Assembly (NCBI RefSeq): GCF_037042905.1
Contig: NC_087251.1
Span: forward strand, 27,964,001 to 28,028,000
Source of the DNA: Lytechinus pictus
Lineage: Eukaryota
Length of the DNA: 64,000 bases
Reading direction: 5' to 3'
In this document: piece by piece, positions 2,617-45,400 of the stretch
How positions within the stretch are numbered: the stretch's first letter is position 1
Layout: every line of letters starts with the position of its first letter
Position numbers and translations under genes: made by a program
Notes under the pieces: generated by a model
What the model saw: only the letters and a program-made list of their open reading frames with translations
Databases searched by the model: none
What the model was told of the DNA's origin: nothing

Positions 2617-2672
<56 letters not shown>

Positions 2673-2901
2673 GTGATGGGGATGATGATAATGATAATGA
2701 TGATGATGATGATGATGGTGATGGGGATGATGATGATGATAATGATGATGGTGATGGTGATGGGGATGATGATGATGATAATGATGATGATGATAATGAT
2801 GATGGTGATGGGGATGATGATGATGATGGTGATGGGGATGATGATAATGATGATGATGGGGATGATGATAATGATGATGATGGGGATGATGATGATGATG
2901 G

Positions 2902-2992
<91 letters not shown>

Positions 2993-3134
2993 AATGATAA
3001 TGATAATGATAATGATAATGATAATGATAATGATAATGATAATGATAATGATAATGATAATGATAATGATAATGATAATGATAATGATGATGGTGATGGG
3101 GATGATGATGATGATGGTGATGGGGATGATGATA

Positions 3135-3167
<33 letters not shown>

Positions 3168-18336: not shown

Positions 18337-18443
18337 TCATGTTTTTGATTGATGTGTAATATTTGAGACAGAGCGATGGTGAAGGCTTCCTGATGTGTGT
18401 GTTGATGAGTCTGTCCTTCCTGCATATTGAGGCTCATTACATT
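18337..18443 (-). CDS. CATSPERG: CATSPERG terminal coding exon (ECNEPQY...THQSKT*)
   Basis: ttcag| acceptor, TGA at 18339-18337. Confidence 0.65.
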
Positions 18444-21400: not shown

Positions 21401-24400
21401 AAAATTGAAAAAAATATACGTGCCTGGAACGAAACCAGCAGTACAGGCTTTAACGAACATCAATAATACGGTATACCAAAGTCTTTACAATGAAAAGATT
21501 GGACACTTCACGGACTTTGCGTAATGACCTGCGTCAATTTGCGTGTAAAATAGTGTAGGTGCCTAGTCTTTCCCTTGTCGTGTCTTTGATATGAATATAA
21601 ATCGTGTGCCCTCTTTAGACGAAAATTGATATCGGCGCTGACCAAATTTTATCTCCGTGAAATCTTCACTAAAGATCAAGAAAATATACATATTTTTTAT
21701 AAGAAACTTCAAGGAGAAGTCACAGAAGGATCTAAATGATTGGGTAAGTATCATAGCAGAATGTGAAATCCCTAATTATGTGTGATGTTTTATGTGGGCG
21801 AAAGCCCAGTAGTATATGGATGTGTCGTGTGTGTCACGTTATTATGAATGATATTCCTTCGCACGCGAGATGATATGAGCCCATGGGTGAGCAAGAACAA
21901 GATACTTCAATGTACATAACAACCTCTGTGATCTTTTAGCTGCATGTAGGAAATGCATCTTTTGAACATGAACATTTTTTTTAAAACATGTTTATTTGGT
22001 ATAAAAACCTGTGTGATCTTTGCCCTGATACTCCAACACTAATCAGGGGCCGATAGTATGAAAGGGTCTCTGAAAAACAGTGTTTTGTTATGATGCATCA
22101 TACAATGTACCTTTATTATACCCCTGCCAAAGTCTGAAGGGGGTATATAGGAATCAGCATACGGTCGGGCAACCTGTCTGTTGCTAATCTTGTGCTTCGA
22201 ACTACTTCATCAATTTTCAACCAATTTTCATGAAATTCAGAACTGACATTGGTCTTGGGGTAGCCAGGAGGCTCCTAACAGAGTAAAAATCATTCACTAA
22301 CATGTGCTTACTCTCCAAGGAGCCAGGGGCCTGTTGCATAAAACTTTTTACCTGAGAAAACTCTGGTAAAAACTGAAAACTAAGGTTAGTCTGATTTCTG
22401 CCATTGACTTTAACACTGGGCAAAAACTCCGGTTAAATCCACCTGAGTTTTCTCAGGTAAAAAGTTTTATGCAACGGGCCCCAGGGGTTGCGTCCCATTT
22501 ATGTGCGTGTACCGCAAAAAAACTGAAATTTTCGCCGCCGAGATTACTTTCCTTCTAAAAGATCTAGCCCTAAATCATGTAAATAGGATACAGCTTCATT
22601 TCTGACATTTATACGACATTGATTTCATTTTTAAACGAAAATTCATTAAATAAACATGAAAAATATTTTGAGAAGATGGGGAAAAACTTGCCGATGTTAA
22701 CGTCGCCATCTCGCCAAGCTACAAGACGCATATCCTCTGAAGCAATTTATTTGCTAGCACTGATGTCTGCCTGCCAGGGTTGGGTTCAATTACAAGGTAA
22801 TTGATCAATTACGTAATTAATTACATTTTTTGAGTAATTGTAATTGTAATTGAAGTTTCAAAATGGAAATTGTCATTGTAATTGAGAAAAATGTAATTGA
22901 CTTCAATTACTGTCAATTATTTTTAATTACATTCAATTACTTTAAACCTATCTAATTCATGATTTAATTTCATGACCTTTTTCATGTCAACTGCTTCAGC
23001 ATCAAAGAGAGTAACAGGCAGAATCCATACTTTTTAACCTTAACCCTTCATCTTGTCAGTTTGTCTGTAACTCAGAAATACGTAAATAGGTGGTACTATG
23101 TACAGAATAAAATTGGGTTTCATTTAAGACTTTCCTAGAAAGTAATTAATTGACAAAAGTAATTGGTATTGTAATTGAAAAAAAATGTAATTTACTTGAA
23201 AAGTATTTGTAATTGAACATTTCTTCAATTACATGTCAGCTTTTTAGCACTGTGAGGGTTTGATTTCTCTGATAAATTAATTCTTGACTTGATTCATGGA
23301 TTAAATACCTGTAATATAAATCTCATAACATGTAGGCCTTCAACTGAAATATCTGAAGAAGTAAACGAATGGTGATGAAAACAAACAATCTTAGTGTGAC
23401 TGAAAATAAATTGTAAATATTAATTACTTCAATGTACAGAAACAGGAATAAATAATTATTTGAACAGTATATGCTCCATGAAACTGCTGTCAATATTTCG
23501 CCTTTTACGCAATATATCAATATAAAAATTCATTTATATCACCAGAGCTTAAATCGGCCCCAGATCATCATTGTCACTTCTAACTTATACCAAGTTTGAA
23601 GTTGATTCATCAAATGGCTTTTTTGTTACTTATAGCAAGAATGACAATAGGATGGATGGAAGGACAACCCCAAAACATATTGCAATGGCATCCACATACA
23701 GTGGACGGAGGCATATCAAGTAAACAAAATGAATTTTTTTTTTCAATAGCACTAAGTACTTACCACAACAATAATAACTGCACTCTTGCTACCAATAGCC
23801 ATGCCATGTACATGCACAACAAACTGCAGATCATACTGGCAGTAGGTGGAATCCGTATCGACTCTATAATTGGTCATCTCAATGAGAAAGTAATACTCAG
23901 GACTGTAAAGACGTTTGCTGGAAGGGAACACATCAGAGCAAGGTGATCCCCTTTGGCAGATCCACTGTATAGAGTTACTTTGATGAGAGTACACAGGGGT
24001 AGAGTCGTTTATTATGCTCTCCATGTCCACTGGCTGCCATATGCGTGCTCCGTTTCTAGATGGAACAAAAAGACAGAAGCTGCATGGGTCTTTCGGAAAA
24101 AAGTTTGCTTGTTGGCAAAAAGATTGTGACTTTTTAACCTAATCATGAAAGTTTGTTTTAAAGGGATGTGTGTGGTTTGGCATTTTTGCTGATGGTTTGT
24201 TACAAATATCGCATTGAAAACATTTTAATTTCCTTTCAAGATGGCTGCAGTACATTAATAGCATAAGGTACTGGTAGCTTGCTCTGCAGATTAATCATGA
24301 TTATAAATACTACATGAGATTTGTATAGTGCACCTTCCATCTTGATTAGATGCTCACGGCGGTTCAGAGCAGAACAAAAACTATTTACATATAATACATG

Positions 24401-27400
24401 TCTGAACAATAAGTCAATGTCTATCAAAAAGCACTCTTATACAGGGGTTTTTCAGGCTGCCCTGAAAAATGTGATATATTATACATTAAGGACGTTCCAC
24501 AGTTATATTTGTGCGCATTATGATCTGCGCATAGTTTACACTCTGCGCGCTGACGTCACAATGGATGAACAGGTATTAATTAGCTGCGGGTATGAGCTGA
24601 TTTTTCTCGTCTTCTGCACTTTAACTGCAGATCCGATGCGTTATTTCATGAAGCTAAAAAATTGAATTATTCCATGGACCATTCAAAAAAATATTCTCTA
24701 CAATTTCAAAATACTTTACTCTGCAGTGCTGCCAAGAATCACGAATATTAGCCCGAGTTTGAATAAATGGTAGAGTGGTTTTGATTTTTTCTTCACATAG
24801 ATACTAAGCATTCGGCCCATTTTTGGTGTTTTAAAAAGCACATTTGCTCTAATAAAAATGCTGATAGTTTAAAAACAAGCACATGAACCCCTATTTTTTA
24901 ATGTTTCTACCTCTTAGGTGTACCTTCCTCTACAACTCTGCAAATTTTGGTGAAAATGACATGGATTTTGAATAAAGTGCAGCATTTATTGTACGTTTGT
25001 ATTTTGTTACTGAAATTTTACATTTTTCAGATTGGGATTTTGTTATCTTTTACGCCATTTTTAAGAACTGACAGTGCTGTTAAACTTAAAATTGCAAACA
25101 AATAGCACTATTAATAGATTCTCCATTCTCACGATACAATTATTAACTCTCTTGCGAAATTTGATGACTTTTTCATGTATTTTGAATGAGTAATGGAGGT
25201 TTAAACTCATTGTAGTAATCTTGGGCGGTCTAAAAATACCAAATTCTTTTGAATGCGCAATTCTTAAGAACATCAATTTGGGTGAACTTTGAAGCTCTAT
25301 AGCAAAAAATCAAGCACATGGACCTATGTTAATTTTTGCATATTTCGAATATTAAGGTTCTAAAGTATCTATGTGCAAAGTTTGGTGAAAATGACATGGA
25401 TTTCACTTTAACTGTGGAACGTCCTTAAGCTGTTCTTTACTGGAACCTAAATGAAGACATGAGCCCTATCACGAATGAATCAAGAGAGAAAGAAAAGGAG
25501 AATATCATACCGATGGCAATGCATGAGCATAAATCTACCCCTTCTGACATGCCATTTAGAAATGGCAATAGGTGCAGTATTTGGATATTACTGGGCCATT
25601 TAAAAAAATGCTGCCCTGAAAAATGTGATATATTATACATTAAGCTGTTCTTTACTGGAACCTAAATGAAGACATGAGCCCTATCACGAATGAATCAAGA
25701 GAGAAAGAAAAGGAGAATATCATACCAATGGCAATGCATGAGCATAAATCTACCCCTTCTGACATGCCATTTAGAAATGGCAATAGGTGCAGTATTTGGA
25801 TATTACTGGGCCATTTTAAAAAATGCTTCGCAATTGTTCATAATTCATACAGTTGACTTAATATTTAATCATAATCATGTGATGATTAATGCAGTTCATC
25901 AAAAAAAATCAGACCGAAGTTAAATTGCTTGGCTTTGTTAAATATAAACAGATTGTTGAAATTCATCAATATCTGGTGCAGAGAACCATGGACATAATAG
26001 CATGTTAAAAGCAACACAATAATTCATAAGAAGCAAATGCAATGTTCTGAAAACAGATAAAACAAGAAAAAACAAGCCTAGCTACTTACATGTCTAAGTC
26101 ATTAAATTTTTGCTGCTGCTCCGGTGTAAATAAAACAATATCCTTTTCACTTAGATCACTCCCACCCAGCACTTTCAGTGTGTATTGACCGGTGAAGAGA
26201 CTAGCTTCTCCTGTTGTGAAATCCACTACCTTGAACATTGGTCGGAATACTGGTAAATGAATTGCAGATATAACATTGGTAATTAAAATAATAATTGGTT
26301 TTTATTGAACACTATTACAGAAAAGCTGATCAGAGCAACAGGACTGATAGAAAAAAAAACCATACAAATAATGCAAAATGACATTAAGAATTATAGGAGG
26401 GAAGAGTTAGGTGTGAAGGATTTTTGCCAATTGTCTTCTGTGTTTATAATCATTAAAACAATATCAAACATATCATTTCAAGTTCTTTCAAGTGAAGTCT
26501 GATATATGGAGCTTGTCCTTTTCTCTCCTTCTTTAAAGCATGAATGAAGGACAGGAAGAAAATAAGGGAGAAGAATAAGTATTTTCAAAAGTTACCTGCA
26601 ATGTTCAGGCCTTGATTGTACATATTAATTTACAGATTATATCATAAATGACCATTAAACTATTTCAAAATCCTTTTTCAATTTTTTTCTAATTATCAAG
26701 CTCAAGCATGTGAACATCTTGTCAGTATAAGCTATTACATGCCAAATTAATTGAAATTTAATGAAAACTGCGATGAAGATTTTGAGATGACATTCAAAGT
26801 ACGATATGAAATTCACATAGTTGTCTTTATCATTACTGTTTTACATCATCATGAACATTTTTAATACCAGCATCACAATAATCAAATCAAATTTAGAATC
26901 TCTTATTTCTTCAGTTACTCAGTCAAATTATATAACTGACAGCTTAGAATATCCTTACCATCATGATAATGGAGACAAGGTCTGTTTTCAGTGGTGATGG
27001 GACAGTCATAATAAAATCGCTTCTCAAGAATGTCAATGCTGGTTTGAAGATCGAAGACTAGCTTTCTCCCTGGTGGGCAACCAAGCATTACATCCATTGT
27101 ATAGATACCCTTTACAGAGATACAGAGATATTTGTGAGACTTCCATGATTAAACCTCAATTAATAATTATTATCATAAAAATTACAACTACAAGGATAGG
27201 CATTTTCTACCTTCATCTTTCTACAAATAATCCTTTCTAAGGTGTACTTTATAAGAATGGCTTCCGCTCAAACGTCCATTTGGGTATGTAATAATTTGAT
27301 ACAAGAAAAATTGTATGGAAGTACTGATTCAAGAATGTAATAAGCGAGAAAAAAAATAAAAATTATACACTGTTTTATAAGAGCCATTAATTGTGCTCTT

Positions 27401-30400
27401 TTTTCAGGGTTGAAAATGAGCAGGTGCATTTTTATGCTTCTGGTGCATGTATAACTTGATATTTTCTGCATCTAAGTAATGAACGTTAATTATGCATGAT
27501 TGAAATCGACACGTAAATGAATTTCCCATATTTTATTAGTTTTAAAAGGCCTAAAGGTCTTAACGCTGTTCAAGCATCAGCTTTAGTTGAAAAAGAAAGT
27601 GGAGTGATTTCTTAAATGTCATCTGAAATTTTTTTTTTAATTTCTATTTCCTTTTTCTTTCTTTCTCTCTGATGAAAATTAGCACTATTCTTACCTGTAG
27701 CCTATCCCACCAAATAAGGAAAAATTTCAAGCAATTCTGAATGAGGTTGTTCAAAATTGAATGCATGGTTACAGAAACAAAATGATTGCCATCTTTGTAC
27801 ATGTTTCAAATAAAATGTTTGTATTTCTTTAAAAAAAAAAACAAGTGGAGCGCCTCTGGCAGTCTTGCCTAAATAATGCAATTCAATATAGCAGCAGTGC
27901 TGACTTTGAAAACAACTATCAAATAATTTTCACAAAAAAACACAACTAATATAGTATGATACTGGGTTCATTGACCCTAAATGACATTTGACCTCGATTA
28001 TGTGACCTAATGCTTGTGTTGTCGGAAAGGTACTGACAACAGCAAGGGGAGTGAAAATGATGAAGTGATAGAATGGAAGGGGAAAAAGGGAGAGGGAGTG
28101 GGATGATAAAGAGAGAGAGGAAAGAAGGACGAGAGGAGGGAGCAGAAGTGATCTAAAAATGATTCTAATAAAATCAACAATTGCATATACCCAGTAGCAA
28201 CATGTCTTTGATGCAAGCCACTTGTAATAATCATTATGTAGATAGATTGAAACAAAATTGCAACAATAAAAGGACAAAAATTCAATTGCTACCTTTCATG
28301 CATTTTATCCACTGTCGAAATCTTATCGAGATGTGAATGTGCTGACAAACAGCAGGGGGGGTCAAAAGGATGAAGGGATTAAAGGGAAGAGGATATTAAT
28401 AGGAGGTAGTGGAAGGATGAAGAGATTGAAGAAAGGAATGGAGGGGGGGGGGGAGAGGAAGTGATCTAATGAAGATGTGAATGTACTGATAAACAGCAAG
28501 AGGAGTGAAAACAAAATAAGTAATGAGTCTTTTAATTGTTTGTATTTTTTATACATAACCAATTCAGCCATTTGGCTAACTCTTGTTTTTAATTAACCTT
28601 AAATCAAATTGAATTGAATCAAAATTGAAGGGATAGAAAGGAAGAGGAAAGAAAGGAGAATGAGTGGAAGGATGAAGAGAGTGAAGAGGGAAGTATGTGA
28701 AGTGATCTAATGAAGATATGAATGTACTGATAAACAAAAACAAAAACAAGAGGGAGAAAAAAGATTGAAGGAAAAAGGAAAGAAAGGAGTGAAAGGATGA
28801 AGAGAGTGAAGAGGAAAGGAGGTGAAGTGATCTAATGAAGATATGAATGTACTGATAAACAGCAAGATGGAGAAAAAAGGATAAAGGGATTGAAGGAATG
28901 AAGAAAGAAAGGAGTGGAAGGATGAAGAGAGTGGAGAGGGAAGGAGGTGAAGTGATCTAATGAAGATATGAATGTACTGATAAACAGCAAGGGGGAGAAA
29001 AAAATATGAAGGGATTGAAGGAAAATGGAATTAAAGGAGTGGAAGGATGAAAAAAGTGAGAGAGAAGGAACGAAGGATGGGAGGATAGAGAGGAAGTGAT
29101 ATGATGAAGAAGTGAATGTACTGACAACAGCAAGGGGAGTGAAAAGGATGAAGTGATAGAACGGAAGGAGAAAAGGGGAAAGGGAGTGGGATGATAAAGA
29201 GAGTGAAGGAAGAAGGAATGAAGGACGGTAGGAGGGAGCAGAAGTGATCTAATGAAGATGTGAATGTACTGACAAACAGCAGGAGGGAGGAGTGAAAAGG
29301 ATTAAGGGATAGATGGGAAGGGGAAATACGGAAGAGGGAGTGGAAGGATGAAGAGAGTGAAGACAGAAGGAAGGAGATGAAGTGATCTAATGAATATATG
29401 AATATACTGATAAACAGCAAGAGGGAATAGTGAAAAGAATGAAGGGATTGAATGGAAGATGAAAGAAAGGATGAAGAGAGTGAAGAGATAAGGAATGTAG
29501 GGATGATGGAAAGTGACCTAATGAAGATATTAATGTTTTTTTGTAAAATCAATTTTTTATTTGGGGGTTTCAAGAAGGAAATTGGCACTGGCGTAAATTC
29601 AAATGGTGAACCTATCATTCAAGTGGGGGGTGGGATGATCTATCGTTTCATTCCCCCATGTGAATAGTATGACATCAGTTTTACGCCAATGGAAATAGGG
29701 AAAGAAGAGGAATGAAAACAGAAAAAGGTAATTATAGGGTGGAGATAATGGGAAGGTAAGATATAAGGAAGAGTGAGCAGAGTGGGGACAGAAAGCAATG
29801 ATGTTGAGGGAGGTAGATGGAGGGAAGAATCATGAAGAGTGTATCCAAAATTTTGAAAATGTAGAAAGGAGATAGAGGGGGATAGCAAACAACTATTAAT
29901 ACCAGGAATGTAAAGGACGGATACAGAGAATCAATAATAAACAAGAAAGACAACAAAGGGATAATGAGGTGGTTAAATTAACAAGTAAAGGGATATGAAG
30001 GGTAGAAAGACAACTTTTTACCTCTGGTTTGAAGATATCCCCTTCCTTGATAAAACATGAGAATGTTGAATGCCATACATGTATAAGCATGGAGGCTGGG
30101 TAGAGATCTACACCTGGCCCTGCCTGAAACTCCAAGGCACCCTTATCATACAAAGTTACCTTTGAATACACAAAAACAGAAGAAAAAAAACTATCATGTT
30201 ATTGTTTTTAATGAAAGTATTGATTATAGTGATATAATTTTCAAAGGCAAATGCAAAAAGAAAATTGTGGTTGAGAAAAAAACACTCTAAAAGAAATTTA
30301 GGAAGTTCTTTTTCCCCCAAATGAGTAATTAGTGCAAAACAAAGTGTCATGATTGAATAAAAGTAGTTAAAAATAGAGACACTGATATCCACTAATTCAA

Positions 30401-33400
30401 GAAAATGATATAGAATTAGAATGTTCAGGCATTTCCAAGTGTACTAGCAACCATGATCTCCTACCATAATGAAAGAATCACTATACCCTCTAGAATGCAA
30501 ATAATAATAACTGTTGGTCAAAGATATTTATGTGTGTGCATTGGTAATGTATACACTTGGTTATTGCATTTATGGGAAAGGAAAGAGCAAACAATTTATA
30601 TCTAAGATAGTACATGTTGGAAAACACTTTTATTTGGTGCATACACCGGATACTGATAAAGTTCATTCTGACTTTGACAGTTTGAAGTATCATCAACGAT
30701 GAAAATTTGAGGGCTCATCACATGATTCAATTTTTGCCAATCAAACAATTACTGTATGAGGAATTTAAGGCATTATATCATTCCACTCTTCATGTTAAAA
30801 TATAGAAATACTTAATTGAATATAATTAATTGTAACAAACAATGAGTAGCAAGATTTCATTCACAGTAAAGGATACAACTAATTTCAGTGTAATAAACCC
30901 CTAAAAAAAATCTGCAACTCAATTTTGAGGGATGATATTTTTTTGTTACTGAGATATAAAAGATGAAACTGGTATCATTGAAAAGCTCAATTATTCCTCT
31001 TTACAATGATGTGCCATCTGTTGTGTGATTAAGTAATCATGGAATGGGCAGTTATCCTGTATATCGGGAAAAGTCAGAAGTGGAATGTTGCAAAATGCAT
31101 TGTTATCTAACCAGTCTCCATTTCTACAGAATTTTGACCATGCAGGCGGGTGGCAGCGGATGTTTTACAAAAGTGTCAGTGGCAAATGGTGCTTTTAAAT
31201 GAATGAAATGTGCTTGAATGCTATTCAGGTAGTCATTGATGAAGGCTAAAGACTTGAATTGTGCATATTATGCTCTTTCATTTTAAAGATTTTAGTGTGT
31301 GTTTGAGGTAAAAGTGTCATTTTCTGAGTGGTGGTTTGTAACATGTTTCAAGATGCCTCGCTTATCAAATCTCCTCAAGGCTCAAATAATCGGACAGCTC
31401 CAAGCAGGTGTACCCCAAAAAGATGTTGCAATTTGGTTTGGGGTGAGCAAAAGTACCATTTCAAGATTGCGTTCAAATTCCTTGAATTAGGGGAAGTTAA
31501 AGACAGGCCAAGAAGTGGGTGTCCAGGGGAAGACAACTCTGCAAGAAGATCGGTGCATCGCACTCTCACATTGCTGCATGTTTATCATGTCTGCGCATTC
31601 CATGATAACATTAACATTACAAATGACACATTCATGCTTTCCAATGATACCACTTTTACATATGATGATGGCACACTACGAAATTTATTACTGCTCAAAC
31701 TTGAGTTGCAGAACTTTTTTGAGGGGTTTATGTACAGTAGATTACAAATTAAGTGATTATTTTTAATTGGCTAATGCACTACAGGATACGTTAGCAAGGA
31801 AAAAAATACCTCTCACAAATCTCTTTATTCAATTAATATTGCATGATTTTTAGTAAAAAAGAAATTACTGAAAAAACTAGAAATCTTTAAACTATTCAAT
31901 GATTAGCATTTGTACCTCATATCTGATTGTGTTGTTTAATTTATACTTGAAGAAATGTGCATCAATTCCAAGAAGTTCATCATTGGACACTTCAACAAGA
32001 GCTTGTAGGTTCTCAATATCTACACTGCCATGACTGATACTAATTTCCAAAGAGATGGCAAATTCAAAAATTTCATTTTTGTCGAGGTAAATGGTAGATG
32101 GAAGTGTTTTGGTGTCCTCTGGAGTGTTTCCATATGGCTGTGAGGTAAAGAAAAACAGATATATACACATTCACATGTAGTTGGAAAACACTTAACGGAT
32201 AGATAAGAAATGGAAATTCTTGAAAATCCCGAATTGCTAACCATAAGATGTCAATCACACAAAAGAATACAGTTCATATAATTCACTATTAATACAATAA
32301 ATATGTTTCTTATCGTTGTGACGTTGTGACGTTACGGACGCGAGCGTCGCGTAACGTTGGGGAAGTACAATAAGAAACAAGATGGCGGCGTAAACATCGG
32401 GCAAGTCTCTTCCGTCTTTTCACAATATTTTTTTGATGAATTCTTGTTTTAAAAATAACAACGAGAGCGTAGAAATGTCGGAAATGAAGTTTTATCCCAT
32501 GTACATGATTTAGAGCTAGATCTTTTAGAAGGAAAGTAGAAATCTCGGGGGTGAAAGTTTCAGGTTTTGGCTTCCATTGTGTGGGTCTATGGGATAGAAG
32601 CCTGGCTTCATGAGAGTGACCTTACGTTAGTAAATGATTTTTACTCTCTAGAAGCCACCTGGCTACCCTAGACCTTGTAGTTCAAAGTCCAGAGACTTAT
32701 CAATTGAGCATCAAACCTTTACGTTTCCCTCAACAATATTGACCTATTACTAAAGCTTTAGACAGGCTTTGGTGCTCATGGGAAAAAACTATTCTATTTT
32801 CATAGATTTCAGAGTCCTGCTTATCATGAAGGCTCTGTGATTTTAAATCAAACAATAGGCTAAATCAAGTAAAAAGGCAATATTTACACGTAGGATCTAC
32901 TCATTATTATCATTCTTAAGAATTTACAACTAACCTGCAAGTGGTAAGCATAAGGATCAATATGGATGCTTGATTCCATGTCTTTATTTCGGAAAAGATA
33001 CTGATGAAAGTCACGATATGTGTCTGTTTCTCCATACCACCTGCGAAAGGGATTGTGGGAGACTTCAGCAATTTCCTGAAAAAAATAGAAAGATGTATTC
33101 CTCAGCAATGATTTTTCTCAAATAATGATCAGTCAGGATAAGTTTCTTTTGTAACAAGCAATACATTTGATTTTCTTTGAAATCTGACTTAACAATGCAA
33201 TGGTTTTACAATTTAACTAAGAAATGGATAAATAAAGCAAGTGGTAAAAGTTCAAGTTCAATAATGGTTGATCCAAAAGCATAGTGATATCCAGGCAGCA
33301 ATCAGGAGATAAAATGTGTTACATCGTGTTATGTGTTACAGGTGTATAATGAATTGATAGGCCTATTATAAAATAACCATTAGAAAATTTCCATGGTAGG

Positions 33401-36400
33401 GAATCCGAAAGCTATGTACACCAAATTGCATGCCAATTTTAATGAAAAAAATAAATATTTATGGGAAAGTGACTACAGTGTGATGAACGATTCCTCTTGA
33501 TAACATCCATGGAGACTATAATAAGTCACAAAAAGAATAGAAATCCTGAAAAGCATAGAAAATCTGCAATAAGGAGTTCTATTTTATTGAAATCCTTTTT
33601 TTCCTACAATTTCATTAGTACTCAAGTGGGTAGCATAATTAGGATCACTTCAAAATCCAGTAAGTTCACAGCATTAACAAGTTCACTAATTTTTTAAGAC
33701 ATTCTTTATATATTTATCTTTGTTATACATCAAATTTCTTTTAAATTCAGCAATGAAAAAAATTCCCATGTTGCTAATTTGAAGATTCAAAGTGATCAAT
33801 AAATACTTAAGATAATTCTTAATCTAAATGGGGTATTGTCAAATGTCTTACATTGTCCTTGACTGTCTGAAGGTCATCTTTTTGTTCCAGCAGGTGATGC
33901 ACAATAACTTGGTAGATCATTAGTGATTTCTCTGTATGCCTGTTGCTCTCTGCCAACTGGGGTGCAGCGAGATAATATCTTTCTCTACGCTCAAATAGAA
34001 AGCTTCCCAGATTTTCAAAGTTGACTTGACTGTATGGGCATTCATATTCTAATAAAGGTGACATTCTCCTGTGGGATAGGCATGAATATCAAGACTTAAT
34101 TTTGCTTGACACTGTAATCTGACCACTGATTTAAGTCTGTTTTCACTTCAGTTTTTACTTCTGCTGCAAACCCATAATGAAGCATCATAAAAATTACCTG
34201 ATTATCATAGTTTTATGAAAATGTCTTTATTTGTATGCAGAATTATGATTATAGCTATCTTATTCATCAACTTAATAATCTACCAACGTATTATCTCATA
34301 CCAATTATTTCAACTGAGTTCACCGAAAATACTACTAACCTATTTGTAAGATTTCTAATTGGGATTTTTGAACATTCGCCTTCCTCTAATTTTCAAAATG
34401 CCAAATCATTGATCTTTGTCATTTTACAGTAATTGAGGCAAAGGCCAATTTAAAAAAAGGATGAACTTTAACTCGATAACTAAACACTGTCATTATTTCA
34501 TATTAAGCAATTTTAACATATGGACTAACTAAAGCTGTCATTTTTTTCTTGAGGACAGAAATCAGCATTTAGGGAAACAAAAAGAAGGGTAGCAGGGTAA
34601 AAAATACATTTTTGGTAAAGTGGCTGTTTTTCTTCAACTTTTCATGTCAAACTACATTTTGTATTGAAGCTTTTAACAGGGCTCTATTGCAAAGATTTTA
34701 ATTTTTAGCAGGGATGAATTTTTTCTGAGTGCTAAAAATGATTTTTCTCACCCCTCATCGTCTCCTTCATCATGACCCTCCTCCTCTTCATGACCTCCCT
34801 CTTCTTCTCCATGATGATCCTCCTCCTCTTCCTCCTCTTCTCCATGATGATCCTCCTCTTCTTCCTCTTCTTCCTCTCCATGATGATCCTCTTCTTCTTC
34901 CTCTTCTTCCTCTCCATGATGATCCTCCTCTTCTTCTTCCTCCTCTTCTTCTCCATGATGTTCCTCCTCCTCCTCTTCTTCTTCTTCTCCATGATGTTCC
35001 TCCCCCTCTTCTTCTTCCTCCTCTTCTTCTCCATGATGTTCCTCCTCCTCTTCTTCTTCCTCCTCTTCTTCTCCATGATGTTCCTCATCTTCTTCTTCTT
35101 CCTCCTCTTCTTCTCCATGATGTTCCTCTTCTTCTTCTTCCTCCTCTTCTTCTCCATGATGTCCCTCCTCCTCTTCTTCTTCCTCTTCTCCATGTTCCTC
35201 CCCCTCTTCTTCTTCCTCCTCTTCTCCATGATGTTCCTCCTCCTCTTCTTCTTCCTCCTCTTCTTCTCCATGATGTTCCTCTTCTTCTTCTTCCTCCTCT
35301 TCTTCTCCATGATGTTCCTCCTCCTCCTCTTCCTCTTCTCCATGATGATCCCCCTCTTCTTCTTCCTCTTCTCCATGATGATCTCCCTCTTCTTCTTCTT
35401 CTTCTTCTCCATGACCACCACCATGACCTCCTCCACCATGATCTCCTCCACCACCGTGACCTCCTCCTCCGCCCTCGTGATCATGCTCTAGCTCTACCGC
35501 AGCATACGCATACATACTGTTTGCAAGTATTTCACCAGGATCAATTCTCCTTCTCATTAGGTCCGTCTCATTTGAGCTCCTATAGGCAATGAACTATAAA
35601 GTAAAATATATAAAAGGGAAGCTTAAGAACTGTTGTGAGCAAGTTTTTAAATGCTATGATGACATATATATACATGTACATATATATAAAATAACCTTGG
35701 GTTAGAATTTAAAATGATAGTTCTAATGTTGTGCCTGTACGTGTCTTGCCTGTGCTATGCAGGCATGGCAAACAAAGAAACATATATTTCAACATTTCGG
35801 CGCAAGAAGGCTGTTTATAATCCCTAATCAGTTAAGTCTTTTTGGCTGTTCTATGGCCGGAGGTTAAATCAACCTCCCCTGAGGTCTTGCTTATGCTTAT
35901 TTAATTGTAAATCATACTTTCTGCTCTTATACACTAAATAAAGCGTCTAGAATGCAGATTTTTTTTGTGTGCAAATAAATTCTTTGCAGCATTCTTACAA
36001 CTTTGATTAAAGAAAATTATTTTATCCATCACTTGATAAATTTCTTATACAGATCTTTGTATTTAGATATGTTTTCTCCTTGGGGTGCCAAATTAATTGC
36101 ACAAAATTTTTAAGCATAAATATGCTAAAATCAATTAATTTCAGCCAATGGCCATGAAACGATCACAAAGTATAGAAATCTCCATTTGCATAAACAAAAT
36201 CATGTTTTGAAGCATCTTTGGGTCTGATATGTTTTACAAAAATGCTGCGTAATTTCAGAACCACATACCCAGGCCTCACAAAAGAAAGTCAGTGACAAGC
36301 CCAGTAACAAAAATTTGCATGGCAGAATGGTTGCAGAAAATGTTGAGGGGTGGTTGGATCCAATCCACCCCCCCCCCCTCTTACCCTCCCATCTCCCGGA

Positions 36401-39400
36401 GTTTTTAAAGTCATATTTACCCTTCAATATATTTCATTTTTATGGTTGAAAATGGTTATTTTGAGGTGATTTTAGTTTCTGCAAATTTCACTGGTCACTC
36501 ATTGCTAACTTTTACAATATGTAATTTGGTAGTTAAAAACATTAATGAAATCAAACTGAATACTTAGAAATTTCCTATCCGATACCAAATCATTGAAATA
36601 CACAATATAAAAGGCATAATCATTTTCACTGAGTGATTAATGCAAAATAATAATTATATATATAAATGTCAATATATGAATACAGATGAAGTTTTATTTA
36701 TTAAAGTATTGCTAATTACTTGTTTTCCCATTTCCATATGAAAATAACAAATAGTTTCAAAACATGATATCCCTTTCATAATACAAGTTTTAAAATGTGG
36801 TCGTTCACTTCAATCTCTATACTCAAGCATTTTTGCTCGTCATAACTGATCCCAACATTTAGAAATATATACCTCATAAAGAGTACCCCACGCATCATAG
36901 TAGACAGAGATTGTGACAAACACGTCATGAGAGGGGTCTGCAAGCTGTTGGCCAGTGAGTCGAAGCATTCTACCCCAGCCAGGAGACGGCCTCAGCTTCT
37001 TAAGATAAACATTGTCTCCAATCTCACCATACCAGATCTAACATTTCAACACATGAAAACACCTTACTGATATTCAATATTTTATGTTAAATATCCTTTA
37101 TGAAAGATTATGTTTTACAGGTGTCAAAGATAATCTCAAAAAATCTGTAGCTACCAATCTCCTCTGATATCATCAATATTTGGTACATGTTCTTATTTCC
37201 GTGTCATAAATTATGAATATTCTATCTATAATTTAGCTTCATATATATATGCAATTATACAAGTGAAAATCAATTAATAGTATCAGTAATAATAAAAACA
37301 ACCTGAGGGAAGAATTCAAATTTATATTTACTCCAAAAAGGGACAAACTTAATTAAAATTTGTTTTCTGCAAATATAAATTAGAATGAAACTTATGTTTA
37401 TACAAAGAACCAATCAAATAAATTTGAAAGTAAAGCATCAGTTGCATTAAACCACCCAGTCAATTAACATTTCAATCATTTTTTTTAATGACATCCCCTC
37501 CCGTCTCTCCTATTCCTGACCTGCAATTACTAGTAAAAAAAGCTTTACCTCCTGATCTTCGTTGAGTAAAGCAAATGAAGGATCTTTGCCAACTACAAAG
37601 ATTGAGATTGCAGAATCAGATGTGTATTCCAGCAGGACATATACTGTCTTTCCATTGTCAGGACTAGATAAGTGTATTGGTAAAAAATACAAAGAAAAAT
37701 AAAACTTCTAGAGAGAATTTGATAGAGAATTAATTAATCACCACTGTACGTCTGCAACCATAAAAAAATGTTTAGATTCGGCATGATATACAGTAGCCAT
37801 CACAACTGAAGAAAGAAGGAAGTACATGTACAGTATCATAAATGCTATTTGAGATATAATTATATCATGCGTATTTCACTTGAGAAAACATTTGATGAAT
37901 TTGTAATTTCTCTTGTAATATTTTGGCATGTACAATTTTTCATGTAAAAAAATATGCTCTAAATGTACCTTTATTTGTTGTTAATTTATCATGATAAAAT
38001 GAAAGTCATCAATATATTTACAGATGGAATTTTACAACCTTATAGAACCTTTATTTCTGGTCATAAAATTGCAGTGTGTATGAAACTGTCTGATAGTAAT
38101 TGGAAAAGGCTGATCATAATGCCCCTCAAAAATAGATTTGCCCTAAGATATTGAACGGGCTACAACAACAACTTGATGCAATCCTGTCATTGGTGAATAC
38201 AAAAAAGAATGTATATAGATAATAATAAGAAATTTATTAATCGCATAATAGAAAAAGCTCTCTCTATGTGCTGTCCAGTGTAAGAAATAAATATATATTA
38301 ACATAGTATAAAACAAACTGTAAGAATGCAAACTAGCAAAAGGATAGAAATTACTGATATGAGAGATTACCTGCAAACAGATAATTTAAGAAAACAATTT
38401 TAGCTGATTTTTCATCATTCACCATGATATGAGAACATTAAACCTGTTGCAGTGCCACACTTTTCCCACATAATCTAAAAAAAAACAAGTGGAATGCCTC
38501 TGGCGGTCTCACCTGCATCACGCGATTCAATATAGCAGCAGTGCTGACTTTGAAAACTACTATAACTCGCATAAGATGTTCAGTGATACTTGGTTACTCT
38601 TATTTCCATGTTTTATGAACTAGACCAATACACTTACAGAGATATGATGGTAATTCAACAAATACCCCCAACGTGGCCAAAGTTCATTGACCTTTGACCT
38701 TGGTCATGTGACCTTAAATGCGCACAGGATGCTCAGTGATACTTGATTACTTTTATGTCCAAGTTTTATGAACTAGACCAACATACTTTCAAAGTTATGA
38801 TGGTAATTCAACAGATACCCCCAATTCGGCCAAAGTTCATTGACCCTAAATGACCTTTGACCTTGGTCATGTGACGTGAAACTCATGCAGGATGTTCAGC
38901 GATACTTGATTAACCTTATTTCCAAGTTTCATGAACTAGGTCTATATACTTTTTAAGTTATGCTGACATTTCAAAAACTTAACCTTAGGTTAAGATTTTG
39001 ATGTTGATTCCCCCAACATGGTCTAAGTTCATTGACCCTAAATGACCTTTGACCTTGGTCATGTGACATGAAACTCAGGCAGGATGTTCAGTAATACTTG
39101 ATTAACCTTATGGCCAAGTTTCATGAACTAGGTCCACATACTTTCTAAGTTATGCTGTCATTTCAAAAACTTAACCTTAGGTTAAGATTTGGTGTTGACG
39201 CCGCTGCCGCCGTCAGAAAAGCGGCGCCTATAGTCTCACTCTGCTATGCAGGTGAGACAAAAATGAAAGTTCACTTATTTTATTAAACAAGTGGAATGCC
39301 TCTGGCCGTCTCACCTGCATCACGCGATTCAATATAGCAGCGGTGCTGATTTTGAAAACTACTATAACTCGCACAAGATGTTCAGTGATACTTGGTTACT

Positions 39401-42400
39401 CGTATTTCCACGTTTTATGAACTAGACCAATACACTTATAGAGATATGATGGCAATTCAACAAATACCCCTAACGTGGCCAAAGTTCTTTGACCTTACAT
39501 GACCTTTGACCTTGATCATGTGACCTGAAACTCGCACAGGATGTTCAGTGATACTTGATTACTCTAATGTCCAAGTTTTATGAACTAGACCAACACACTT
39601 TCAAATTTATGGCTGTAATTCAACAAATACCCCAATTTGGCCAAAGTTCATTGACCCTAAATGACCTTTGACCTTGATCATGTGACCTGAAACTTGCACA
39701 GGATGTTCAGTAATACTTGATTACTATTATGTCCAAGTTTCATGAATCAGATCCATAAACTTTCAAAGTTATGATGGTAATTCAACAGATACCCCCAATT
39801 CGGCCAAAGTTCATTGACCCTAAATGACCTTTGACCTTGGTCATGTGACGTGAAACTCATGCAGGATGTTCAGTGATACTTGATTAACTTTATGTATAAG
39901 TTTCATGAACTAGGTTCATATATTTTCTAAGTTATGATGACATTTCAAAAACTTAACCTTAGGTTAAGATTTTGATGTTGATTCCCCCAACATGGTCTAA
40001 GTTCATTGACCCTAAATGACCTTTGACCTTGGTCATGTGACATGAAACTCAGGCAGGATGTTCAGTAATACTTGATTAACCTTATGGCCAAGTTTCATGA
40101 ACTAGGTCCATATACTTTCTAAGTTATGCTGTCATTTCAAAAACTTAACCTCAGGTTAAGATTTGGTGTTGACGCCGCCGCCGCCGCCGTCGCCGTCGGA
40201 AAAGCGGCGCCTATAGTCTCACTCTGCTATGCAGGTGAGACAAAAACTAGAGATGCTCGGCGGGTTGCGCGGCCAAGCACATGTATCCCCCGAACCCACC
40301 GCGTCATCCGTCATTGCGATATATAGAGCTCACACAGATATTTGACAAATAAATACAATTGTTTTCCCTGTGGGTACCAAATTTGATGACAATAATATGA
40401 CGTAGCAGCATGACTCTGCAGAACCTAAAATATTGGACCTTCATGACAAATCAGAAGATAATTGGAGAAGAAATGCAGCCAGTAGAGCACTCACAAGGAA
40501 ATCTCTGCTATTTCCACAAAAACTCTTGTTACCATGGCAATGATGTCTCCGCCCACACCAAAATCAATAGGCGGCTTTGCTTTACCATAACGGACCTTCA
40601 TGTTACATTTGAAGATGAGCAGAGAAGAAATGCAGCTGGCAGAGCGCACACAAGGACATCTCTGCTATTTCCACAAAAACTCTTGTTACCATGGCAACGA
40701 TGTCTCTGCCCACACCAAAATCAATAGGCTTCTTTGCTATACCATACTCAACCTTCATGCCAAATTTGAAGATGATCGGAGAAGAAATGCAGCTGATAGA
40801 GCGCTCACAAGGAAATCTCTGCAGCGGACGCAGCGGCGGCACGACGAGGCCAAATCCATAGTATCCTCCGAACTCTGTCCGGGGGATACAATAATGTTCC
40901 CACTACTTGATATCATTATAACTAAAGTACCATTAAATGAAAGCACAGTGAAATAATACCTGTGTAAAATGCTGTTCCCCCAAAAGAAGAGATGCTTAGA
41001 GACATAGCCACTGAAGGTCAATCCAGTTAGGCTTACAGTCATACAGGTACCATCATGCTCGTCATGGTGAATATCACATTTGCTCAGCCCACCAACATCA
41101 ATCCATTCTCTGTCTATTCCTGACACAGCTGGAAAAGAAAGTCAAGAAATTATCAATTAAAAAATGTAGTGAAATGCTACATTCAGTGTTCTATGATAAA
41201 AGAATTATAGGAGCTAAGATAGCAGAAAAGGGTGCATTTGAATACATCTCAGAAGATCACAGTACTTCCAAAATGATATGATGAAAAATATTGAATTTAC
41301 CTTAAGTGCTACATGTCGATGGCATTGAAGCATATATTCTTTTAGTATAAAATCTAATGACAATGTTTATAGTTAGTTACTTTGTATATTAGGTGATGCA
41401 CATTATATAATCAGATTTGAATAAGATTTGATAGGCAGGTCTGTACAACTAATTGCAATTTATGGTAGGTTCTTAGAATGCATGTTTAAAACAAGGCGGT
41501 TCATGAATGACAAGTCTCGCCTGATTTTGCGATCGATAAAATATGCAATATGATCTCTTGACCCCTAGATGACCTTTGACCCATCATCCTCAACAACACA
41601 CATGTGGCATTACGCAATGATAATTTGAACCAAGTGTGATCAAAATTCATGCAGAAATAATGAGAGCAATTTGAACAAGAACTTGACCTTTTGACCCTTA
41701 GATGACCATTGACCCCATCATCTTCAACAACACACATATTACCCAAGAATCATTTGTACCAAGTGTGAACATAACTGATGCAGAAATAAAGAAATAAGAG
41801 TAATTTGAACAAAAACTTGATGTTTTGACCCTTAGATGACATTTGACCCCATCATCTTCAACAAGACACATGTGGTATTACCCAACGATCATTTTAACTA
41901 AGTTTGAAGTGTGATCAAAATTGAAGCAAAAATAACAAAAAGAAAAAAGGATGAACATGATCTCATATCATTTGAACTCTTGACCTCTAGATGAACTTTG
42001 TCCCCATTATCCTCATGGACACACATGGGGTACCCAAGGATCATATGTACCATCTGTGAACATAATTGATGCAGAAATGAAGAAATATGAACAAGACCTT
42101 TGACCCCACCTTCCTCAACAACACAAATGTGGTATTACCCAAGGATCATTTTAACCAAGTGTGATCAAAATTGATGCAGAAATAAAGAAATGAGTGCGAG
42201 TTGAACAAAAACTGTTTGAAAAAATATAATTTGACCTTTTGACCCTAGATGACCTTTGAACAAAACTTCAACATTATTGAATAGACTAACGGACCAACAG
42301 ACTAACAGACCAACAGGATCAGCGATAACTTGGTCTTTGACAAACATCGTTCAGGCGAGACAAAATATGAATATCAAACATTTTTTTTCTAAATTCAAGA

Positions 42401-45400
42401 GCATCTTATTCGAATCCGTAGAAGTCCTACATGTATGAATCTAATTGAAATATATATTTGCTTTTTCCAGCTATTTGATATTGATATTATTTCATTTCCA
42501 AGCTGGGAATTAAACAAACCTATCCAAAGGGAATGAAAATAAATTGATCTTACCATGTGGAATTGTAAGGTTAGCATCCAATGATCGAACCAGATTCCAT
42601 TTGCCATACCCTGGATAATACAATGATAATCACATATTTCAATTACAATGTTTAACCAAACACATCTCTTAATTCAAAATAGATATTTTGGACAAAAGTT
42701 ATACATGTATAATTTCAAAATATAAAATGAAAACCGTCTAGCTTTAACCAGGCTCGGATCCAGCCAGAAAAGACAATAGTTTTGAGAGGCCGACAATATG
42801 GCCCCTAAAATGGTATTGTGTCTAGTCTGGCCAGATCTGCGCCTGGCCTTCACCTCTGGTGAATAAGACAGTAATGAATGATGAATGAATTAAACACATT
42901 CCTGTTTCCAAATGACACTTACCAGACAGTTTGAGTAAATGATACTCTGTAGTCATTTCTTGTTCCACAATCTTTACCAAAACATAAGTCGATTCCATAT
43001 CAATATTTCCAAATGCAGCATCAATAATAAAACAAGATGATTGACCTGATGCTGAAAAAGAAATGAAATAAACAATTGGCATTTGAGAATAACATTACAA
43101 AAAGTGAAACAATGTCACAATATTTCAACTGAATAGTAATGTATCAAACTATATTAAACTATGAATAATTCTAAATTTTATAACTTATGATGGATTCATA
43201 AGATTTTGTATGTAAAGGATATTTCTTTTAAGAAATCATGTTGTTTTTTCCAAAAGTTTCATAGGTCTGAGCTGGATGATTTCGAGCTCTATTGATATTG
43301 CAGAGAGAAAATACAGCTACAAAGAGAGTAACACTTTGGAAGAATTTAAATATATGCAATTCCTTCTACCCACTGTACCAAATTTGGTTGAAGCTTTTTA
43401 TATTGTAGAAAACTTGAATACATCAAATGTCAGAACATTTCCACTGCTTGCATTGAATGCGTACATGCTAGCTAAACCTTAAATTTTCATGGGCTGGGTT
43501 GATCTTGCTGGACTTCAATTGCCTTTTTGCCCACTTTAGGCATTATGAAAGTGTTATTTGGGATAGAGAAAAGGGTTGCTGAAAGTATCATGAGGAATGC
43601 TGGTTAATAATTCCTGCTTGCGGAAGTGCATGTTACAATATCACTAATTTCCAACACAGTCTAATGCTTACAATGAACATGTTAAAGTGCCCCCCACCAA
43701 ATTTTTGTTAAGATATTTCAAATAGGAGTTATCCTTTGTTCATCTTAAAGCAACTACATCTACTTAAGATCTAGCAAAGTGGAGTCAAACATGTTTGAAA
43801 CTTTTGTAGTTTTTGTGTAACATAGGCCAGGGAGAGTGAGCTAAAGAGTCTAATCTCTCAATGCATTTCTCTTTCAAATGTGATGAAGATTTGAATTATT
43901 TTCATATCTTCTCTAGATGTAGCTTATGTACACATGATAATACATACATTTATTATCATTAATGATGATAATGTTGATAATAAAAGTGCTACTAATAATA
44001 CTAATTATAATTACAATGATAGACATTTATGAATATTTGTACTCAGATTTGTTTATACAGGTGCAGAATCATTTTTTGCAGTAGCTTTAGCACAAGTTAT
44101 CATTTCTAACACTGAAAAGATTACCTAAAACAATATTACTAGCTTTTTTATTGTCATGTACTTGTTAATTGTCAGCTAGCTTATAATTTTATCAAACCTT
44201 AATAAATTTTTGTCAAATCAAGCTCATTTTCTTAGTAAGTCGACATCTACTTTAGATAATGAGAACAAAATATTGTACAAAAAATACACCTTTCAATAAA
44301 GAAAACTAAATATTAAAAATGGTAAATCAGTAGAATATTGGTGAGGGAACATGTCATAATTCCCTATTTGGCTTGTCATAACACTAAACCTAAAGGTTAC
44401 AAGAGTCCCCATGATATGTTTAGTTCATTCATTGAGCTCTGCAGTGCCATGACATAAATCATACATGGATCTAGTATGAGCATAAAACAAAGAAATATCT
44501 TCATGTGCTCACTTTCATTGCATTACTATTGGGTTTTTGTTGTTTTTTAGTTTTCCCCATTCTCAAATTGGCAAATTTGGAAGTATTATTCATACTTTTT
44601 GTCAATCAATGTTAACTGGACGTACACAAACATCTAAAGAAAAATAGCGCAATTAAATAAAATCAATGACATTAGCAATTCAAAGAGGAAAGCTGTTCAA
44701 GTAAGATGAATTCAATTAATTCTTGAATGGGTTAAGACAAAAATCTTGTTTGACATAGATTACAAAGAACACAATTCAAAGCACAAAATATTTTGACATT
44801 GCCCTTTATAGTTCTGAGATTAAAGTTTTTGGTATTCATAAATTGACTGATAATTTTCAATAAGTTTGATTTCACCTTAATACCTGCTGAATATTCTACA
44901 TTCTAGAGTACCTCAAATATTACCCGATTTGTATATTTTATGTTTTTTGTTGTCATCCATTTGAATCTTTTGATGAGGTTTTGTTTTTTGTTCTTGTTTT
45001 TGTTTCTAAAAACAGAAATTAGGCAGTTTCTTTATGAATCTTATTGTACAAATTATCGAAATCAATAACCGTTTTTCCAAATCTACATATACATTAAACA
45101 TATATGTATCTTGATAAAAGTGTTTTAGGAAAATAATGCAGTGTCTTACCAATCTGATCACATGCACTGTTACCACTGGAATCTACCAGTTGTTCTAGTT
45201 GTGTACGAGCACCTGTAGTAATAACAACACTAAAAAGTATTACACATTGAAAGATACAGAGAATACCTAATTGTGTTTTCTTACCAATAAGTTGCAATGG
45301 AAATTTCGATGAAAGGAAACAAAATAAGGAGCAGAAGTGAAATAGCAGCTTGAAAGTTTGTACTCTCTGAAAAGTAACGAGTTAATCTATCATACGTCTA

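Follow-up and report, generated by a model that had tools for sequence, protein, structure and literature searches.

The closest described relative of the gene analyzed here is mammalian CATSPERG, the gamma auxiliary subunit of the sperm channel CatSper, which is seen as chain F (mouse CATSPERG2) in the structures 7EEB and 9UBW and has an N-terminal domain (NTD), a beta-propeller, an Ig-like domain and a C-terminal domain in that order, with one membrane helix. Sea-urchin CatSper subunits were reportedly first described by Seifert et al. in 2015. The CatSper gene family and the beta, gamma and delta proteins of sea-urchin flagella are already known; all three proteins were detected in sperm flagella of Arbacia, each flagellum having about 1,700 channels, and the gamma protein of Arbacia punctulata was found by mass spectrometry (PMC7024835). 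In mouse sperm the roof of the channel canopy is made of beta-propellers, and neighbouring complexes meet there through a beta-beta dimer interface and a gamma-gamma inter-dimer interface (PMC9205950). Here we analyzed a stretch of 64,000 nucleotides of the Lytechinus pictus genome (NC_087251.1, positions 27,964,001 to 28,028,000; called the window below), in which one exon of the CatSper-gamma gene encodes a long array of paired His and polyglutamate, predicted to be extracellular, at the place of a short linker in the mouse protein.

In ZnuA and in ZIP-family Zn transport proteins, flexible loops of His with Asp or Glu bind Zn2+. The HRC protein of the sarcoplasmic reticulum is built of tandem units in which a short His cluster is followed by about 10-11 acidic residues (more than 30% acidic and 13% His overall); its Ca2+ binding is low in affinity and high in capacity, and it lies on the high-Ca2+ side, next to the Ca2+ release channel, and the title of a paper cited in the same source names Zn2+ sites in HRC (PMC6171002). 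Within CatSper itself, the mammalian CatSper1 pore subunit has a disordered His-rich N-terminus (17.2% His in mouse) which varies in length between species and for which roles in pH and temperature sensing and in the coupling of adjacent channels have been proposed; the N-terminus of sea-urchin CatSper1 is short and His-poor, with 7 His in 120 residues (PMC13674862).

The repeat exon lies at 34752..35593 on the minus strand and is 842 nt long; its reading begins in phase 0 and breaks off after the second nt of a codon, as given by the open frame, by tblastn and by the transcript junctions. It is bounded by an AG acceptor at 35594..35595 (transcript joint 35593/36873) and by a GT donor, GTGAGA, at 34750..34751 (transcript joint 34067/34751, cut +1), with plus-strand ends CT..AC at both. 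An earlier note, which was made from the letters of this DNA alone, had described the same exon, and its coordinates, strand, frame, unit counts, 842-nt length, phase 0 start with FIAY...DPGEIL and GTGAGA donor were all found to be right when compared with the sequence and with our own count of the units.

Four parts follow each other along the minus strand of this exon. The first 36 residues, FIAY...VELE (35486..35593), are conserved and align to mouse CATSPERG2 (7eeb_F) up to residue 609, this being the last part of the beta-propeller that is matched. Next comes a Gly/His block (35414..35485) made of HDHE and then four H-Gly(3-5) units, in which Tandem Repeats Finder (TRF) gave periods of 15 and 18 at 35415-35467. 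The array proper (34779..35413) has 15 HHG and 2 HG units, with 6-11 residues, mainly Glu, after each of them, and was reported by TRF at 34779-35414 with a period of 39 nt, 16.9 copies, 82% matches and 10% indels. A degenerate acidic/His tail (34752..34778) runs up to the splice donor and is contained in a contig piece, 34751-34799, which is joined to the next exon.

Counting the units of the translation gives a core of 244 residues which consists of E151, G42, H39 and D12 and has no other residue type; its net charge is about -163, and its His (16%) stand mostly as HH pairs every 11-14 residues. The Glu codons of the array are mixed (86 GAA and 65 GAG), not one of the 244 core codons is Lys, Arg, Gln, Val, Ala or stop, and there are 14 exact matches to an HHG-Glu6 pattern, all of them with CAT-CAT-GGA codons. 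The segment is expected to be disordered, and a feature search of the ESM Atlas with the array gave no usable match. The minus-strand frame is open from 34748 to 35593 (281 codons); because this GAR-rich, purine-rich tract is open throughout in five of its six frames, the open frame is no coding evidence here, and the coding case rests on the splicing and on the homology of the flanks. As 842 is 3 x 280 + 2, skipping of the exon would cause a frameshift.

The flanking exons give this homology. The upstream exon (36873..37037, minus strand) encodes a beta-propeller part, EIWYGEIGDN...TLYE, matched by tblastn at 100% identity, and transcript contigs splice it to 35593. The downstream exon (33852..34068, minus strand) is 100% identical to the NCBI Lytechinus pictus protein of LOC129264628, and homology to mouse gamma resumes here at residue 631. 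For this exon the earlier note needs a minor correction: the donor is joined to 34068 as it expected, but the exon opens with RMSPLLEYECPYS... and not directly with ECPYS.

The whole gene could be followed over 18340..48380 on the minus strand by tblastn of the proteins P0001 and P0004, which gave about 21 exon-sized protein matches. The translation of the repeat exon is identical to residues 589-868 of the newer RefSeq version of the predicted protein (XP_054758511.2, 1435 aa), in which the insert is residues 625-868 and which the NCBI pipeline labels 'uncharacterized'. Single exons gave no matches to Pfam or to the Protein Data Bank (PDB), being too short, so the annotated protein was used instead. 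It matched three Pfam families over their cut-offs, CATSPERG_C (6.3e-37), the Ig-like domain (7e-10) and the beta-propeller (7.3e-10), and the CATSPERG NTD under its cut-off (7.5e-5; 23.1 bits against 27 bits); in the model of Strongylocentrotus purpuratus the NTD is over it, at 27.9 bits. Mouse CATSPERG2 was matched with E 1.3e-60 (7eeb_F) and E 9.7e-61 (9ubw_F), in each case by two collinear stretches which flank the insert. The Pfam domain order of CATSPERG, homology to a solved gamma chain and a type-I topology are thus all present, and on this protein-level evidence the gene is confirmed as the CatSper-gamma orthologue of L. pictus, the identity which had been proposed for it before (mouse CATSPERG2 at E 1.3e-60, three of the four CATSPERG Pfam domains over cut-off).

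The exon is constitutively included in CatSper-gamma transcripts. The runs X1 (study P1) and X16 (study P8), which belong to separate studies and share their organism label with the best matches of the window, have contigs that contain the joints 36873|35593 and 34752|34068 with GT..AG on the minus strand, each joint being found in one contig of X1 and in one of X16, and the depth of these contigs on unique intron sequence is zero. The loose contig ends continue into the next exons on both sides, and their printed ends translate to neighbouring parts of the protein. Contig placement skips the repeat itself; even so, the contig on the 5' side passes 35502-35513, reaches 35439 and has 175 more letters inside the array, and its counterpart on the 3' side adds another 87 within it. 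X1 and X16 contain 0.49-0.55 of the sampled words of the exon, though its non-repetitive part is only 24%. Both predicted junctions are therefore in use in transcripts, and the upstream donor near 35502-35513, which had been feared to remove the repeat, is read through. An assembly artefact was considered and set aside, as the array is in both RefSeq versions and transcript contigs enter it from both ends.

A separate observation belongs to the intron between two gamma exons, at 36040-36390 of the window, where short pieces reach a summed depth of up to 620 in X16 and where the raw RNA reads of runs X20 and X21 are also drawn, numerous loose ends among them. The stretch has the look of a dispersed repeat which is transcribed elsewhere.

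The place of the insert in the protein was obtained by alignment to mouse gamma, in which residues 373 and 649 of P0001 stand opposite residues 609 and 631 of the mouse chain. Between these anchors there are 275 residues in L. pictus, of which 244 are only E, G, H or D, against 21 in mouse. The linker is short in the mouse orthologue, as the earlier note had said of human CATSPERG, and it is short (8-50 residues) in other homologue models as well. The Pfam CATSPERG_beta-prop match stops shortly ahead of the insert, at profile position 407 of 442, and about 130 residues lie between the insert and the start of the Ig-like domain, which makes the insert a loop at the C-terminal margin of the propeller that forms the roof. 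A simple hydropathy scan, used here in place of a dedicated predictor, gave peaks at residues 14-32 and 1305-1323 of the 1435; the insert lies between the hydrophobic signal at the N-terminus and the one membrane helix near the C-terminus and is therefore predicted to be extracellular, as in the mouse structure. Homology and position between signal and helix thus agree with the extracellular placement proposed earlier, and the alignment places the insert at the C-terminal edge of the beta-propeller, in the 'roof' of the channel canopy.

Length of this segment among related proteins was surveyed by a profile search of 1.84 billion representatives, which gave 216 homologues at E<=0.001. In total 155 proteins were examined; 31 of them span both anchors, 124 were dropped as partial, and the length was measured between fixed profile positions. 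The two RefSeq versions of L. pictus have 265 and 276 residues here. One S. purpuratus protein (P0002, MetaClust) has 69, with a run of about 50 H/E/D residues and without the HHG period, and 27 other models have 8-50, including two Diadema species at 40 and another S. purpuratus model at 37. When a word index was searched twice more for urchin orthologues, nothing came up beyond these same proteins of L. pictus, S. purpuratus and Diadema (4 among 3448 candidates the first time, 4 among 393 the second). The comparison indicates that the insert is lineage-specific and has grown from a short acidic/His linker of about 20 residues in Diadema and about 50 in S. purpuratus to 244-257 in L. pictus.

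What separates the RefSeq versions of L. pictus is one whole unit and five small indels in frame (cores of 244 and 257 residues), and the frame is kept through all 6 indels in both. Length variability, which had been suggested as a property of this region, is hinted at by these versions, but the difference may be allelic variation or an assembly difference, and the second explains it equally well.

Gene models of related urchins break at the repeat exon (P0008, P0003 and P0004, from Lytechinus variegatus and S. purpuratus). The L. variegatus model begins at the first residue after the exon, one S. purpuratus model skips the exon and another exits by an internal donor. Annotation evidently stumbles at this exon.

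A second array of the same kind was found elsewhere in the genome. The back-translated HHGEEEEEE pattern has 29 matches in the 812-Mb genome, and these fall in two loci only, 14 in the gamma exon and 15 in an exon on contig C15, while the reversed pattern, used as control, has none. A DNA search of the genome with the gamma exon gave 46 GAR-rich matches among 370 first-look candidates; seven other GAR-rich loci were fetched and only one of them, the C15 locus (L005), has HHG units, 19 in number. The sister exon (G000:C15:28944925-28945853, or L005:1078-2006, plus strand) is 929 nt long, has a ...TTTCAG acceptor and a GTGAGT donor and is in frame. It encodes 19 DHHG-Glu(8-13) units, with a core of 266 residues (E183, H39, D23, G20, K1) and a charge of about -205. 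The two arrays share the peptide period of HHG or DHHG with polyglutamate, the number of 39 His and the exon phases (phase 0 start, end 2 nt into a codon). They differ in chromosome and in codons, the C15 units being all CAC-CAT-GGT and the gamma units all CAT-CAT-GGA, and the sister has no Gly/His leader and has Asp before almost every HH. The fixed codon difference means that the peptide is common to both and that the DNA is no recent copy. In another of the fetched loci (L003, G000:C21:2716946-2717613, plus strand) an open frame has GEHEEE.. His/Glu units (8 His) and then a Lys/Arg-rich stretch.

Location links the sister exon to CatSper-beta. The Pfam family CATSPERB_C (PF15149) matches the genome only at C15:28962129-28967317, on the same strand and 16.3 kb downstream of the C15 exon. 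The first CATSPERB_C exon aligns to residues 869-905 of the 1109 of mouse CATSPERB, so the DNA upstream should code for about 870 residues of beta; if coding is as dense as in the gamma gene (36-46 aa per kb) they need about 19-24 kb, and the C15 exon falls inside the expected body of the beta gene. The computed chance that a random site falls within 40 kb upstream of the CATSPERB_C exons on the same strand is about 2.5e-5, for which reason the C15 array is taken as a CatSper-beta exon, an assignment that is very probably correct. Other searches added nothing to it: no beta orthologue was found among the 155 homologue proteins by blastp and tblastn, a codon-usage score trained on gamma exons gave no useful separation of exon from intron, and neither the epsilon families PF22841, PF22843 and PF22849 nor the unrelated PF22845, PF22847 and PF22848 match C15. 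The delta beta-propeller family PF15020 has no match in the genome.

Two further observations were made around these subunits. Candidate CatSper epsilon/delta loci are at G000:C7:17361471-17376645 (plus strand) and G000:C16:2254313-2265751 (minus strand), with weak CATSPERE_NTD2 or CATSPERD-E_C matches. Just downstream of the CATSPERB_C exons, at L014:4227-7104 (G000:C15:28969527-28972404), there is a tandem repeat of about 2.9 kb with three open plus-strand frames, rich in Thr, Pro, His, Ser and Leu.

As for the function of these arrays, we favour the reading that they form a His-punctuated polyglutamate brush on the beta and gamma subunits which binds divalent metals, that is, a Zn2+/Ca2+/H+ binder of the HRC type; its probability is put at roughly 40%. 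With carboxylates beside them, the HH pairs would hold Zn2+ or other trace metals and would titrate with pH, and the Glu runs would bind Ca2+ and Mg2+ with low affinity and high capacity, as in HRC. Loading with metal or protons may then alter the ionic milieu around the channel, or else how channels are spaced and coupled in flagellar rows, because beta and gamma make roof-level contacts between neighbouring channels in mouse. The switch would happen when sperm go from semen into sea water.

The known systems which resemble the arrays also differ from them. HRC has a 29-residue unit with HRHRGH, which includes Arg, and is a soluble luminal protein with a Cys-rich tail (PMC6171002), whereas the gamma array has units of 11-14 residues (HHG and Glu), has no Arg or Cys and is built into the ectodomain of a plasma-membrane channel; the resemblance is only one of design and no homology is claimed. 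The CatSper1 N-terminus resembles the array as a disordered His-rich region of the same channel, 17.2% against 16% His, with length variation between species, but it is intracellular, belongs to the pore subunit and is not poly-acidic (PMC13674862). The insert is not a CatSper1-type His-rich N-terminus, since it lies in gamma, between signal and membrane helix. The loops of ZnuA and ZIP proteins are tens of residues long and non-periodic, and have no homology to the gamma array.

Physiology of the animal itself gives zinc a place in this reading. Sperm of L. pictus concentrate 65Zn from sea water, and EDTA strips half of it in 5 min; 0.1 uM free Zn2+ reverses the chelator block of their motility and acrosome reaction (PMC2113594). 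In human CatSper, Zn2+ of at least 10 uM suppresses the ligand-evoked Ca2+ influx (PMC8350739).

A stronger form of the same idea was also considered, and we hold it as a tentative and rather doubtful one. According to it, the beta and gamma arrays of Lytechinus, each of some 250 residues, would together form one extracellular layer, switchable by metal or protons, with about 78 His and a charge of about -370 per channel; this layer would be the long-sought EDTA-accessible Zn2+ site of sea-urchin sperm, would gate or couple CatSper on dilution from semen into sea water, and would be the outside counterpart of the mammalian CatSper1 His-rich N-terminus.

Several points weigh against the metal-binding brush. 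Two camarodont urchins have arrays whose lengths differ fivefold, and the array is missing from Diadema, therefore the channel works without it. Sea water has about 10 mM Ca2+, 50 mM Mg2+ and a high ionic strength, so that the polyanion would be screened and loaded with counter-ions; this makes a Ca2+-concentrating role physically weak, and the 'Ca2+ concentrator' is the weakest version of the idea. Rows of channels are known from mouse CatSper and are assumed for the sea urchin. It is by location that the C15 exon is assigned to beta, and its place in the beta transcript is a probable one. Around it, 244 of 363 plus-strand open reading frames (ORFs) were compared with Pfam (those of L012, L009, L010 and L013, with the 119 of L011 and L014 left out and ORFs of more than 30% one residue filtered), and no match to a CATSPERB family was seen except for the three CATSPERB_C exons; a PDB search with two candidate ORFs and with the 29 residues that flank the C15 exon gave no CATSPERB match. 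On the transcript side, the central 376 nt or so of the gamma array are bridged by no single contig, and internal cryptic splicing is possible. The rRNA-depleted RNA runs X20 and X21, with the same organism label, gave no reads on the exons in the approximately 6% of each run that was sampled, from which no conclusion is drawn.

Among the alternatives, the two that survive best are both considered rather unlikely. One is that the array is tolerated junk, a coding (GAR)n micro- or minisatellite which expanded by slippage in a surface loop and has no function of its own. Its 39-nt tandem period with 10% indels between units is what such an origin would give, as are the fivefold length difference between urchin genera with no array in Diadema, the one unit and small indels by which the L. 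pictus versions differ, the many other GAR-rich tracts of the genome (the 46 matches among 370 candidates) and the fact that the frame of such sequence stays open regardless. It does not explain why HHG-polyGlu occurs at exactly two loci in 812 Mb, both of them CatSper auxiliary-subunit loci by the above assignment, for which random placement has a chance of about 2.5e-5, nor why the arrays differ at synonymous His and Gly codon positions while the peptide stays alike. Purity of the array is a further difficulty for it, as Lys, Gln, Val, Ala and stop are absent from the 244 codons and other GAR loci in the Glu frame carry Lys (22 in L003 and 16 in L007). The sister array makes a selected function more likely, without saying which function.

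The other is that the arrays serve as a spacer or coupler of the channel lattice, the beta and gamma arrays setting the distance or coupling of CatSper complexes by bulk, charge repulsion or His-metal-His bridges, with no conditioning of ions at the pore. Mouse complexes touch each other at roof level through beta-beta and gamma-gamma contacts (PMC9205950), and the arrays are found at exactly these two loci, with no acidic/His-rich ORF in the 50 kb around each of the CATSPERD-E_C and CATSPERE_NTD2 matches; the gamma insert also emerges from the roof domain, the beta-propeller. Against these agreements, the mouse gamma contact D280 is distant in sequence from residues 609-631 (PMC9205950), the place of the array in its subunit is established for gamma and not for beta, and neither an echinoderm CatSper structure nor sea-urchin flagellar rows were found in the literature surveyed.

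An extracellular pH sensor for spawning is decidedly less probable than these. In such a sensor His residues with a pKa raised by the surrounding polyglutamate would titrate between the pH of semen and that of sea water, which differ, and would switch the conformation of the brush. The 39 His, at 16% a density close to the 17.2% of the mouse CatSper1 N-terminus, itself a proposed pH and temperature module, would suit this role, and so would the short, His-poor N-terminus of sea-urchin CatSper1 (PMC13674862); but the known pH control of CatSper acts from inside (PMC7024835), and the raised pKa of the His is a supposition. Finally, a fast-evolving gamete-recognition or sperm-competition region, in which length variation itself is selected, as proposed for the indels of the rodent CatSper1 His-rich N-terminus (rodent CatSper1 indels versus sperm competition being the topic of PMC4041144), is most unlikely: lengths do differ between species and between the two L. 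pictus versions, but the simple and invariant composition lacks the sequence diversity of recognition proteins, and the channel is flagellar and not at the egg-binding tip (PMC7024835).

Other low-complexity tracts of the window were noted in passing. At 2583-3254 (plus strand) a (GAT)n/(GATAAT)n microsatellite of 670 nt follows immediately on the GTAAGT donor of a plus-strand coding stretch (about 2450-2575); by its looks it is intronic and so is a non-coding counterpart of similar size within the window. Near this (GAT)n tract, His/Tyr-rich open frames at 3789-4127 (plus strand) and 4943-5152 (minus strand) come from simple repeats of CAT/TAT type and are probably non-coding low complexity.

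A full-text literature search, which did not cover supplements, found no report of a His/Glu array in a CatSper auxiliary subunit, so an earlier mention is possible; PMC6660944 has nothing on auxiliary-subunit sequences. In a comparative study of 2026 these subunits are regarded as conserved for the most part (PMC13674862). No molecular site for the zinc effect on L. pictus sperm was met in the literature surveyed, although no dedicated search for it was made.

CatSper is the Ca2+ entry channel which steers sea-urchin sperm, and the array is a natural, lineage-specific add-on to its large extracellular canopy, with a simple chemistry of paired His and polyglutamate that is apparently doubled on the two subunits which contact neighbouring channels. 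Contrary to a picture of simply conserved auxiliary subunits, the array would mean that His-rich regulatory low-complexity regions in CatSper extend beyond the cytoplasmic N-terminus of CatSper1 (PMC13674862). It is also a candidate, at the molecular level, for what makes the activation of L. pictus sperm depend on trace zinc, a dependence which was reported in 1985 (PMC2113594).

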